Shown: positions 7,240-10,695 of the stretch, in pieces
How positions within the stretch are numbered: the stretch's first letter is position 1
Layout of the letters: each line of letters begins with the position of its first letter
Virus record (IMG/VR): IMGVR_UViG_2744054854_000009
Reading direction: 5' to 3' (one strand)
DNA length: 30,480 bases
From: a virus
Lineage: Duplodnaviria > Heunggongvirae > Uroviricota > Caudoviricetes
Translations under genes and position numbers: made by a program
Notes under the pieces: generated by a model
The model's database searches: none
What the model was told of the DNA's origin: nothing
Seen by the model: only the letters and a program-made list of their open reading frames with translations

Positions 7240-7248
7240 GTGACGATT

Positions 7249-7737
7249 ATGATGATGGTTTTTGGAATGTTCGTTTTTATGCTGCGCACCACGCCCTACC
7301 AGCAACTCCAGCACTCGCAGGAGTGGAGGCACGTTAAAAACGAGCGCGTTAACCAGTCAGCAGGCTGGCAGTACATCGGCACTGGTGATGACAACATAAC
7401 CCTTTCAGGTGTTCTTTACCCGGAGATCACGGGGGGAAACCTCTCGCTATCCGCCCTTGAAACTATCGGCTATGCGGGGCGCCCATGGCCGCTTATTGAG
7501 GGTACGGGACGTATTTATGGTATGTACGTTTTAACACGGCTGGAGCGAGGTAAATCCGAATTCGATCAATTTGGGAATCCCAAAAAAATTGAATTTACCC
7601 TCAGCCTGAGCCGTGTCGACGCGGATTACAGGGAGAAGCTGCAAAGCTCGACCGTCAGCGACGCCCTTGCCGGGTTAAAGACGAGTGCAAATAATGCGAT
7701 AAACCAGGTGAAAGACTCGCTCAACGGTCTGTTTTAG
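7249..7737 (+). CDS. U: tail protein U
   Basis: MMMVFGMFVF...LSGVLYPEITGG... matches P2 gpU as recalled (MMMVLGLFVF...); ATG 7249 with AGGTGA SD; track's GTG start at 7240 overlaps T stop. Confidence 0.9.
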   Translation: MMMVFGMFVFMLRTTPYQQLQHSQEWRHVKNERVNQSAGWQYIGTGDDNITLSGVLYPEITGGNLSLSALETIGYAGRPWPLIEGTGRIYGMYVLTRLERGKSEFDQFGNPKKIEFTLSLSRVDADYREKLQSSTVSDALAGLKTSANNAINQVKDSLNGLF

Positions 7738-7744
7738 CAGTGGC

Positions 7745-8313
7745 TTAAACCCCTTCATGTTCCCTTCTTCTTGAAGGGAACTTCTTGTAAAGCGTCGATA
7801 TTCCGACATCAAAAATAATAGCCACCTGCTGCCGTTTTTCCCCTGCGGCGATCAGCCTTCCCGCCTGTTCCCATTGCTGCTTTGTCAGTTTTGGCCGCCT
7901 CCCGCCTATTCTTCCTTCTGCGCGGGCAGCCGCCAAACCGGCGCGGGTACGCTCAACGATCAATTCTCTCTCCATTTCTGCCAGCGCCCCCATGACGTGA
8001 AAGAAAAAGCGCCCATGGGTGTTGAGGTATCAATGCTGTCTGTCAGGCTGCGGAAGTTAACACCGCGATTGCGTAGCTCTTCGATCATTGTCACCAGGTG
8101 GCGCATGCTCCGCCCAAGACGATCAAGCTTCCAGACAACCAGCGTATCACCCTCCGATAAGGTCCGTAATAAACGCTTAAGCCCCGGCCTTTCCGCTTTA
8201 GTGCCGCTTATTTTGTCTTCAAATATTTGTTCACATCCTGCGCTTACCAGCGCATTTCTTTGCAGCGCAGTGTTCTGGTCATTTGTTGACACCCTTACAT
8301 AGCCGATCAGCAT
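7745..8313 (-). pseudogene. Hin/Gin/Cin-family serine DNA invertase, reading frame broken by a 1-nt loss in a homopolymer
   Basis: N-terminal ORF (7960..8313) has the catalytic serine motif GYVRVSTNDQ; C-terminal ORF (7745..7993) has the HTH part MGALAEMERELIVERT...GRRPKLT. Frames meet at an A5 tract (8004-8008, T5 on coding strand); one more T would restore the conserved ...GAFFFHVMGALAEMEREL... read-through. Confidence 0.8.
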
Positions 8314-8351: not shown

Positions 8352-8624
8352 TTGTATCGAGCATCGTCATTTCTGGCTGTACTGCAGGTCTGGTACCGCA
8401 CCGTCAGAAGTAACCATGTCTTCCGGAAAACGTTGGTTTCAGAAGTCAATACCTACATCAATACCCATCAGTGGCCTGGCAAAGCTGCTATTGGTCGTCT
8501 GAAAGGCGAGGAACTGGCGCAATATAATTCGTGGCTGGATTATCTGGACGCACTGGAACTGGTCGATACTTCCTGTGCGCCAGATATTGAATGGCCTACG
8601 CCTCCGGCAGTTCAGGCCAGCTAA
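8352..8624 (+). pseudogene. 5'-truncated remnant of an alternative tail fibre assembly gene (tfa', convergent with G)
   Basis: No ATG in the ORF (track start is TTG); C-terminal half ...YNSWLDYLDALELVDTSCAPDIEWPTPP matches the conserved Tfa C-terminal motif (W..Y...VDTS.APDIEWP) also seen at the end of G; no alternative tail-fibre C-terminus lies between it and the invertase. Confidence 0.6.
8421..8446. other. candidate degenerate invertase crossover site (hix/gix-like)
   Basis: ttccggAAAACG-TT-GGTTTCagaagt: quasi-palindrome around a central TT, opposite orientation to the site at 9471-9496. Confidence 0.3.
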
Positions 8625-9021
8625 CATGGTTGGGGTCGGTTTTCACATCAACCAATTTCACAGTGTTCTTATATGTCAGCCACGCCGACAGATTTGTCCT
8701 GTTGGTGTCACTGATTTCTCCCAGCATTAATTCTGTACGCCAGTCGAGCATCATCGCATCAGCATGAGCCAACAGCCGCTGACGTTCATTCTCAGCAGTC
8801 GCAATCAACTCTTCCTTGGTCGGAGGTGGAATATCAACCCAACCAGGCATCCCATTCACTGACCCCAGCTTTTTACCGGAGGGAGCTGCACCACAAAATT
8901 GGAGGTGAAGCACATGGGTAATTTCAATCAAATCATCAGGCCAGTTTCCCGCACGCTCGTAGGCTTCTTTGCGGTCGTCATCATAGAAACCAACAGTTGA
9001 CGCACTAAATAAAATTTTCAT
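8596..9021 (-). CDS. G: tail fibre assembly protein
   Basis: ATG at 9021 (MKILFSASTVGFYDDD...) 2 nt after the H-frame stop; C-terminus ...VDVKTDPNHVSWPELPEA has the Tfa-type motif; track ORF extends to 9096. Confidence 0.85.
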   Translation of the reverse strand: MKILFSASTVGFYDDDRKEAYERAGNWPDDLIEITHVLHLQFCGAAPSGKKLGSVNGMPGWVDIPPPTKEELIATAENERQRLLAHADAMMLDWRTELMLGEISDTNRTNLSAWLTYKNTVKLVDVKTDPNHVSWPELPEA

Positions 9022-9022
9022 A

Positions 9023-9346
9023 TCAATACCCCAGTGCGAACCAGAATCCGCCACTATTTGAGTTAAAATCAGAATCTTGCGCGACATGAAAACCAAATCC
9101 AGTTCTTACCACTCCGATAGCTGAACAACCAAACCCCTTTGTTGGCCGTGCCGTAGCGTCCAGTGTACACATCACGGCAACAGTAGCTGTCGGGTGAGTT
9201 ATAGTAAATGTGACGTTTGTAGTTTGCCCTGCGTTGGTTGGGCCAACTTTACCCCACTGCAAAATCAGTCCACCTGGTAGATACTGATATCCGATCGCGT
9301 TTTTCAATATAGACGTTTGTAGTTTGCCCTGCGTTGGTTGGGCCAA
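9023..9346 (-). pseudogene. H: out-of-frame C-terminal portion of tail fibre gene H, separated from the main ORF by a 100-bp duplication
   Basis: ORF repeats ...LKNAIGYQYLPGGLILQWGKVGPTNAGQTTNV (encoded by the repeat) then continues TFTITHPTATVAV...GGFWFALGY to a stop abutting G; has no independent start signal. Confidence 0.6.
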
Positions 9347-9409
9347 CTTTACCCCACTGCAAAATCAGTCCACCTGGTAGATACTGATATCCGATCGCGT
9401 TTTTCAATA
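9212..9409. repeat. perfect tandem direct repeat, 2 x 98 bp with period 100 bp, inside tail fibre gene H
   Basis: 9212-9309 is identical to 9312-9409 (read directly); period is not a multiple of 3, so the H frame shifts and stops at 9249-9251. Confidence 0.9.
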
Positions 9410-10091
9410 CTCCAAACGAACCCATGTCGGGGATTTGGTTTGTACCCGCACCCACATCACACAGTGCTGCCGATTTAATTCCAAGGTTTTGGAGAACCTG
9501 ATTTACCAGCCCAGCATCAACCATTTCTTTTAATGCATTAGCTATCAGTGGGTATTGCTTGTGCGGATTTGCAGCAGCTACGTGCTTTTTCATCACATCA
9601 TCGGCGTATGCCTTAACTTCAATAACGGCATCATCAACATATTTACGGGTTGCCAGCACCACTGACGGATCGATTTTCAGCGTCACAGCCTCGGTGCTGC
9701 TGACGATCAGGATCACGCGAATAACCTGCACGCGCCCGCTACCTTCCTGCAACTGCGGTTTATAAGTCTCTGCACAGTTGGCAACCGCAATCATATCGCC
9801 GTCTTTATCAAACAGGCCAATCTCACGGATCCACCATCCGCCCGCGTCTTCCGGTATAACCTGTTCCGCAATGATCTGATTGGTGTTTACCGGGTCAACA
9901 GTCAGCATGTTCAGCTGCGCGCGGCGCAGCTCATGCACGAGGGCGGTTTGGGCCGGATTGGGTGTCGGCAGCGCGCCGTTACCATCACCGACGGCCATTT
10001 GGGTGATCTCAACCTGCGCACCCAATGCCGTGGCGTTTGCCAGTTTTGCCGCCCCGATATTGGTTAACAGGGCAAAATATTTAGTCGCCAC
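9249..10091 (-). CDS. H: tail fibre protein H, truncated form (280 aa) ending inside the duplicated segment
   Basis: N-terminal region ATKYFALLTNIGAAKLANATALG...MAVGDGNGALP...YKPQLQEGSGR resembles P2 gpH N-terminus; GTG start at 10091 with GGAGA SD (track start is TTG at 10112); premature stop caused by the 100-bp duplication. Confidence 0.8.
   Translation of the reverse strand: MATKYFALLTNIGAAKLANATALGAQVEITQMAVGDGNGALPTPNPAQTALVHELRRAQLNMLTVDPVNTNQIIAEQVIPEDAGGWWIREIGLFDKDGDMIAVANCAETYKPQLQEGSGRVQVIRVILIVSSTEAVTLKIDPSVVLATRKYVDDAVIEVKAYADDVMKKHVAAANPHKQYPLIANALKEMVDAGLVNQVLQNLGIKSAALCDVGAGTNQIPDMGSFGVLKNAIGYQYLPGGLILQWGKVGPTNAGQTTNVYIEKRDRISVSTRWTDFAVG
9471..9496. other. candidate invertase crossover site (gix/hix-like) inside H
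   Basis: Coding-strand sequence TTCTCCAAAACC-TT-GGAATTAAATCG; left half matches the recalled conserved Hin/Gin half-site TTATCCAAAACC at 11 of 12 positions; encodes H residues VLQNLGIK just upstream of the C-terminal region. Confidence 0.4.
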
Positions 10092-10695
10092 TTGCGATCT
10101 CCACGGTATCAATTAAATGGACTGCCGCGCCGGTGTAGTCGCCACCGCCCACGGATATGGTTTCAGGAAAATAGGGGTAAACGGTCAACGTATCGCCGAT
10201 ATAACACCCCGCTCCGGCTTCGATATACCCCTGCGTCTGAAGCGAAAGCGAAAGGCCGGTAAGGTGGCGGCTTCTGGGTTTCGCGTCATCAATCAGGCGT
10301 TCAAGCTCCTGATATGTTTCCTCGGTTATCCCTTCGTCCTGAATGCCAATTTCAAGCTTGAAAGTGCCGGGCTCCTCGCCGCTCTGCCACCACTCAATCA
10401 CCCTCAGCAAATAGCCGAAAGGTTCAACAACGCGCCTCAACGCCGAAATCGTGCCTTTGTGGCGATGGACAAGCCACGAGGCTTTAATTACCTGCCTTTT
10501 GGTCTGTTCAGACCAGCGCTTATCCCAGCGATCAACAGACAACGCCCAGGCCAGATAGGGTAAAAACTCCACGGGGCATTCATCCGGATCCCAGAGCTTT
10601 CGAAGGTCGACAGGAATACCGCTGATCCGCGCCGTCGGTTTCTCCGCATTCCGCATGAAATTGCTGGCTGAAGGCGGCAGGAGGTTGTTATTCAT
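10081..10695 (-). CDS. I: baseplate assembly protein I
   Basis: 204 aa; MNNNLLPP...LPYLAWALSVDRWD...HRHKGT matches P2 gpI as recalled. Confidence 0.9.
   Translation of the reverse strand: MNNNLLPPSASNFMRNAEKPTARISGIPVDLRKLWDPDECPVEFLPYLAWALSVDRWDKRWSEQTKRQVIKASWLVHRHKGTISALRRVVEPFGYLLRVIEWWQSGEEPGTFKLEIGIQDEGITEETYQELERLIDDAKPRSRHLTGLSLSLQTQGYIEAGAGCYIGDTLTVYPYFPETISVGGGDYTGAAVHLIDTVEIASGD

Follow-up and report, generated by a model that had tools for sequence, protein, structure and literature searches.

The closest described relatives of the locus reported here are Gin of phage Mu, known from the G-segment and from crystal structures (PDB 3UJ3/4M6F), and the other invertases of the Din family, namely Cin of P1, Pin of e14, and Hin of Salmonella. 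These proteins share with the gene studied here a Resolvase plus HTH_7 architecture, the Ser9 motif, and the sequence MGRFFFHVMGALAEMEREL, and the gene likewise adjoins a tail-fibre cassette bounded by inverted sites of the 26-bp type with a 2-bp core. Its surroundings are those of P2-like phages with a tail-fibre invertase (Fels-2, Escherichia phage pro483, the E. coli O157:H43 T22 phage, and Citrobacter phage Chris1), in which the same gene order is found, with the invertase between gpU and tfa/H. A further comparison is offered by the P-segment of e14 in E. coli K-12, a tail-fibre cassette for which flipping by invertases from other chromosomal locations is documented (PMC12529663), the mechanism that we propose for the present cassette. 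PinQ, PinR, and PinE each invert the e14 P segment (PMC12529663), and e14 complements Mu gin (van de Putte 1984, PMC215459, as quoted in PMC12529663).

The stretch of DNA analysed, called the window throughout, is the whole of IMG/VR record IMGVR_UViG_2744054854_000009 (30,480 nt). It is a nearly complete P2-like prophage with the order ogr, D, FI, FII, E/E', T, U, invertase, tfa, H, I, J, W, V ... gpA, Dam methylases, Cox, C, and integrase, and it matches the Pfam families P2_GpU, P2_GpE, Tail_P2_I, and Phage_GPA. PGAP likewise annotates the P2 late-gene order and the hallmark families of the Peduoviridae in the PCP06171 prophage (99.9% identical), whose integration site in E. coli lies between fieF and cpxP. 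Only two genes of the PCP06171 prophage, the invertase and the tail-fibre gene H, are flagged as pseudogenes; the latter (L001, 11269-12249) is labelled 'phage tail protein, incomplete', and a separate gp53-like ORF follows it after a 177-nt gap. Among deposited phages, Klebsiella phage 3LV2017 is nearest, with structural genes only about 77% identical, and the invertase genes of Fels-2, pro483, the P2-like O157:H43 phage, Chris1, and P1 reach 72–74% nucleotide identity. The features discussed below are collected in Table 1.

Table 1. Coordinates of the invertase gene, the crossover sites, and the tail-fibre cassette in the window.
Feature	Position	Strand	Evidence or remark
P2 gpU-like tail protein, neighbour of the invertase on the side opposite the cassette	7240..7737	+	PF06995
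Gin/Hin-type (Din family) serine DNA invertase, frameshifted pseudogene	7745..8313	-	569 nt vs 570 expected
C-terminal ORF, 82 aa: end of helix E and HTH_7	7745..7993	- (-1 frame)	Pfam PF02796, E=1.3e-14
N-terminal ORF, 117 aa: catalytic resolvase domain, Ser9 motif YVRVST	7960..8313	-	Pfam PF00239, E=6.6e-38
A5 tract named in the original prediction; unaltered in intact alleles (codons CGC TTT TTC)	8004..8008	.	Nucleotide comparison
Lesion site: plus-strand C3 (coding G3); C4/G4 in intact alleles	8012..8014	.	Comparison with L014, L016, L017, L015, L002, L003
Invertase-proximal crossover site (TTCCGGAAAACG TT GGTTTCAGAAGT, core 8433-8434)	8421..8446	.	Homology break and pattern scan
Truncated alternative tfa, C-terminal ~63 codons	8433..8627	+	Identity of 99% to the 147-aa Tfa found in e14-type elements
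Remnant invertible cassette, 1,052 bp core to core	8435..9482	.	About 1,850-1,935 bp in most sisters
Tail-fibre assembly protein (Caudo_TAP), expressed orientation	8596..9096	-	Pfam PF02413, E=1.2e-26
Tail-fibre gene (P2 H-like, Gp53-like C-terminus), split: ORFs 9249-10112 and 9023-9346	9023..10112	-	100-nt tandem duplication
Two perfect 98-nt direct copies, period 100 (9212-9309, 9312-9409)	9212..9409	.	Repeat analysis
Crossover site within the tail-fibre gene, constant/variable boundary, core 9483-9484	9471..9496	.	Homology break and pattern scan

The original prediction, made from the letters of the window, held that the catalytic and HTH halves of the invertase lie in different frames, and the Pfam searches agree, with Resolvase and HTH_7 falling in separate minus-strand ORFs and both matches, judged by their E-values, far above chance. 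The N-terminal ORF contains the nucleophilic serine (Ser9/10), its segment MLIGYVRVSTNDQ aligning with Gin residues 1-13, and ends in a tail of 16 out-of-frame residues (AFSFTSWGRWQKWREN). The 82-aa ORF additionally covers the end of the Resolvase profile (28 positions), and the helix-E motif MGRFFFHVMGALAEMEREL is encoded intact in its frame. The longest product is 117 aa; HTH_7 and resolvase are joined in one polypeptide of ~190 aa only when one G is restored, and the protein so repaired shares 77% identity with Mu Gin across 185 aa. On sequence grounds, the gene classifies as a pseudogene of a Din-family member and not as a functional member. The 117-aa product would keep the Ser9 catalytic core and would be without the dimer/tetramer interface formed by helix E and without the HTH DNA-binding domain; by the known architecture of Gin and gamma-delta resolvase, it is predicted to be unable to recombine DNA.

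The base responsible had been placed in the A5 tract (T5 on the coding strand), and comparison with homologous invertases moves it to the neighbouring run of plus-strand C residues, about 4-10 nt away. The tract does stand where it was said to stand, but intact alleles have A5 too. The nearest of these (L014, L016, and L017) are 99.65% identical to the window, differing over the gene by a single synonymous mismatch and one gap, and read CCCATGGGGCGCTTTTTCTTTCAC at the site (codons CCC ATG GGG CGC TTT TTC TTT CAC); CCCATGGGCGCTTTTTCTTTCAC, or codon by codon CCCATGGGCGCTTTTTC, is found in the window and in all of the frameshifted relatives. Intact alleles have CCCATGGGGCGC where the window has CCCATGGGCGC. 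Two intact homologues at 94% identity (WP_039268389.1, in E. coli 6409 and C 236-04A) read CCT ATG GGG CGT TTT TTC TTT CAC. Intact alleles are G4 plus T5 and all frameshifted loci are G3 plus T5, and because the closest intact alleles also have T5, this (plus-strand A5) is the wild-type state. The comparison indicates that the lesion is a G4 to G3 change on the coding strand. One G was lost from the run ATGGGGCGC (codons Met100-Gly101-Arg102), taking translation off frame after Gly101 and to a stop 16 codons further on.

The protein sequences agree with this placement. The C-terminal frame reads HGRFFFHVMGALAEM through the T5 run without any repair, Mu Gin (PDB 3uj3, 4m6f) has MGRFFFHVMGALAE at the same position, and restoring the G gives the conserved MGRFFFHVMGALAEM of Gin. 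The exact G-repaired protein of 189 aa exists as WP_459111416.1 in Enterobacter cloacae. One extra base at A5 does produce read-through, as had been predicted, in the form of a 189-aa ORF (...MGAFFFHVMG...), but GAFFFH is not the conserved sequence, and an exact look-up among ~15 billion proteins found no T-repaired (GAFFFH) protein. A lesion in A5 is excluded by the look-up together with the nearest intact alleles. Reads with A6, originally proposed as the sign of an intact gene, would be the wrong thing to look for, because intact alleles have A5.

The frameshift is not peculiar to the window. An exact match to the truncated product of 117 aa, out-of-frame tail included, is found on 249 public contigs (356 index blocks; NCBI, ENA, Logan), among them one from E. 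coli 541-15 (2012-era; EIL45742.1). In 33 fetched loci and in PCP06171 (NZ_CM129872.1), the gene is 100% or 99.8% identical to that of the window and always G3, and PGAP labels the identical PCP06171 gene 'recombinase family protein; frameshifted'. The flanks of most G3 loci are at least 99.9% identical to the window, with only one mismatch in 12,354 nt in GCA_001640145.1 (L012); the exceptions are L021 (99.74% in the right flank), L031 and L036 (99.8-99.9%), and the mosaic L018. Relative to the 94%-identical homologues, the gene has 24-26 synonymous and 7 non-synonymous codon changes, and relative to the nearest intact allele it has one, which is synonymous; this pattern points to purifying selection until a recent, single loss. 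These comparisons indicate that the frameshift is real and inherited and not a sequencing error, and that the deletion was a single recent event ancestral to a group of prophages that is today widespread in E. coli and inherits it stably. The pseudogene offered as one of three readings in the original prediction is the one that holds, its 1-nt deletion being inherited over many independent assemblies.

The mosaic locus L018 (GCA_054551965.1) is 99.95-100% identical to the window over the invertase pseudogene and the baseplate side, and its identity falls to 93.5-96% from gpU and the tape measure onward, with a tape measure of 907 aa vs 979. A breakpoint of homologous recombination lies just downstream of its invertase gene.

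The homology of the window with all sister prophages stops at 8434-8439 and at 9481, which are the centres of the two crossover sites. The sites are inverted and share a 2-bp core (TT and AA). The outer half of the site within the tail-fibre gene, TTCTCCAAAACC, matches the gix/hix half-site at 11 of its 12 positions. The inner halves in the window are degenerate, that of the invertase-proximal site having been replaced by tfa-internal sequence, and the two sites match each other at 15 of 26 positions. Sister prophages have clean inverted inner half-sites (GGTTTGGGAGAAG), and most of their cassettes, of ~1.85-1.93 kb, contain a pair of alternative fibre tips of the Gp53-like or Collar type, arranged head to head and each accompanied by a tfa of its own.

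Cassettes of the sister loci L004-L030 are 81-99% identical to window positions 8435-9482, and all stand beside the same dead invertase. Sister cassettes differ by 2-19% and in content, which includes Gly-rich tips, a 500-aa ORF, and, in L020, an IS; their flanks are near-identical up to the cores. The breakpoints at both crossover cores suggest that whole cassettes have been exchanged between elements by site-specific recombination. The IS element of L020 (GCA_030410235.2, 4823-6030) lies between the cassette and the dead invertase and encodes a 402-aa transposase with HTH_Tnp_1 and rve domains.

Two further observations concern the crossover cores. All four contigs with an intact G4 gene (L014-L017) end 0-23 nt inside the crossover core, as would be expected if the sample held both orientations, yet some G3 contigs also end in this manner or 45-240 nt inside. 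At the ogr end of the prophage, within a variable cargo ORF (1-462), a perfect 14-nt palindrome (AAAACCATGGTTTT, 377-390) resembles a crossover centre but has an AT core, and the likeness is probably coincidental. Logan contig L014, from another sample, ends about 26 nt past this palindrome.

Both orientations of the cassette are found among prophages with the dead gene. Loci L007 and L019, each with the frameshifted invertase, show no differences in 9,212 nt of flank, and their cassettes are inverted relative to each other at 99.6% identity (7 differences in 1,895 nt). A second inverted pair is formed by L020 and L030, and NCBI isolate and complete assemblies differ in orientation as well (PCP06171 vs GCA_045608685.1). 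Since the same cassette stands in opposite orientations on identical flanks beside a dead gene, inversion continued after the frameshift. The expectation that loss of the invertase would fix the tail-fibre segment consequently fails at the level of the lineage, as L007 and L019 illustrate; in the window itself, however, inversion would be a dead end.

All of the differences between the L007 and L019 cassettes fall in the regions of the two receptor-binding tips (positions 92-352 and 1507-1578 of 1,895), with none in the tfa genes. This restriction to the tips hints at extra processes, such as gene conversion from paralogues, selection, or assembly paths through paralogues.

An origin of the orientation diversity without site-specific recombination after the frameshift is unlikely. 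It would require that G3 spread by homologous recombination into prophages that already differed in cassette, or that the contigs were mis-assembled across it, and the mosaicism of P2-like prophages, including the breakpoint just downstream of the invertase gene in L018, and the origin of several contigs from short-read or metagenome assemblies are compatible with it. Against this, both flanks are near-identical up to the crossover cores in all loci, the difference in orientation extends to NCBI isolate and complete assemblies, and inverted repeats of 13-15 nt are too short to mislead assemblers.

Continued inversion is most likely due to the action in trans of other Din-family invertases, whereby invertases of co-resident elements would use cis sites that are still intact. 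Of the 5,426 complete E. coli genomes searched, 3,556 contain one or more homologues of the invertase gene, and in PCP06171 distant blastn shows a second place in the chromosome that is homologous to it. In PCP06171 no e14 stands at icd, where it usually lies, and its Pin was rejected as the helper in that strain. In Gin and Hin, the Fis-dependent recombinational enhancer lies in the 5' part of the invertase gene, within the first ~170 bp, and the present lesion, at gene position ~300, falls outside the region where the enhancer is expected. A more far-reaching reading, to which we give something short of even odds, is that the cassette has become an orphan host-range cassette, with its own invertase dead, that is inverted, and exchanged at its cores (including the 99% e14-type sequence), by invertases that prophages or plasmids in the same cell supply; the dead gene might then be retained for its 5' cis enhancer.

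A little full-length invertase could alternatively be made by the frameshifted gene itself, through rare -1 ribosomal slippage or transcriptional slippage on T5 (giving MGAFFFH...), and such leaky expression would explain the continued inversion that evidently went on in the lineage. The two frames overlap by ~24 codons, the shift required is -1, U UUU permits P-site re-pairing (for example, tRNA-Phe on GCU-UUU-U), and invertases are active at very low levels. However, five T's are insufficient for efficient transcriptional slippage. Inspection of the ~24-codon overlap found no X XXY YYZ heptamer in phase, which led us to reject programmed -1 frameshifting, and nothing points to a stimulatory element. 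In the product, Arg102 would also be replaced by Ala within the conserved MGRFFFH motif, and complementation in trans is the documented and simpler route. We regard leaky expression as quite improbable and retain invertases acting in trans as the preferred explanation.

Still less probable is the proposal, also part of the original prediction, that a slippage-prone tract switches the invertase ON and OFF by phase variation. Short homopolymers, G3/G4 and T5, do both stand at the frame junction, and G3 and G4 alleles are both present in public data. However, T5 is invariant between intact and broken alleles, and G3 is found in 33 of the 33 fetched loci of the 99.9%-identical lineage as well as in PCP06171. 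The G4 alleles occur on flanks that are 99.4-99.75% identical (98.2% for L015, an E. cloacae contig), which marks them as a sister clade and not as revertants. Phase-varying homopolymer tracts are usually of 7 or more, so the G4 run is far below the lengths of known ones; a contingency locus would show a long homopolymer whose length varies among close isolates, and here the tract is G3/G4. With no G4 seen in the 99.9%-identical lineage and no slippery motif, the switch is unsupported. The remaining proposal, that a homopolymer sequencing or assembly error hides a gene that is intact in the real genome, scarcely deserves credence: although the lesion lies in a short homopolymer and PCP06171, the complete genome that matches best, comes as a WGS-type chromosome record in which several annotations read 'frameshifted', the same deletion recurs in 33 independently assembled loci and with the truncated product on 249 contigs, from different sources and assemblers, and an identical G4 to G3 mistake in all of them is not credible.

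In the window, the cassette itself has decayed in addition to the invertase, and only one complete set of tail-fibre tip and tfa is left. The truncated tfa, the C-terminal third of the gene, lies directly inside the invertase-proximal site and is joined to the crossover core via a shared heptamer, TTGGTTT. Intact tfa reads AAAAAAATATCT TT GGTTTCAGAAGT at the junction, which makes it a look-alike of a crossover site; e14-type elements with the 147-aa Tfa are found in many E. coli. The fusion of the tfa remnant to the core implies a deletion of the alternative tip and of the tfa N-terminus. This set would have been removed by a join between the crossover site and the look-alike inside tfa, either by quasi-site recombination or by microhomology. 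When inversion of the window cassette was simulated, the constant part of the fibre became fused to 28 nonsense codons. Window positions 8628-9480 have no match at 85% identity or more in 5,426 complete E. coli genomes.

The tail-fibre gene is broken as well, its frame being interrupted by the 100-nt tandem duplication; removal of one 100-nt unit restores a Gp53-like fibre ORF of 329 aa. The same duplication is present in GCA_001640145.1 (L012), and it is either biological or a shared assembly artefact or history. As the alternative cassette has been deleted and the tail-fibre gene carries the tandem duplication, the switch in the window is dead irrespective of the invertase.

We hold with high confidence the overall reading of an inherited pseudogene caused by loss of a G, with inversion continuing probably via invertases in trans and with the switch further decayed in the window. 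Prophage pseudogenes of this kind, from a well-known enzyme family, are routine, and annotation pipelines already flag this one; its value is mainly for annotation, in that the gene should be repaired to G4 and not to A6, and the lesion is no sequencing error. The only mildly novel aspect is that inversion and cassette exchange appear to proceed without the resident invertase, by a mechanism that we infer. The lineage is mildly useful as a case from nature of a tail-fibre switch that was not frozen when its resident invertase was lost, and its continued inversion fits recent evidence that several Pin recombinases service one segment.

Set against the described systems, the locus departs from Gin and the Din family in that the gene of the window is frameshifted, so that the helix E and HTH parts are not made in frame, and in that its cassette lacks the alternative set and has degenerate inner half-sites. 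It also differs from the P2-like phages Fels-2, pro483, O157:H43 T22, and Chris1, whose invertases are annotated as intact. The e14 P-segment offers the nearest parallel for service by invertases encoded elsewhere, and window positions 8433-8627 are 99% identical to an e14-type tfa; however, e14 retains its own pinE in K-12, whereas in the window the resident invertase is dead and the helper in trans is putative.
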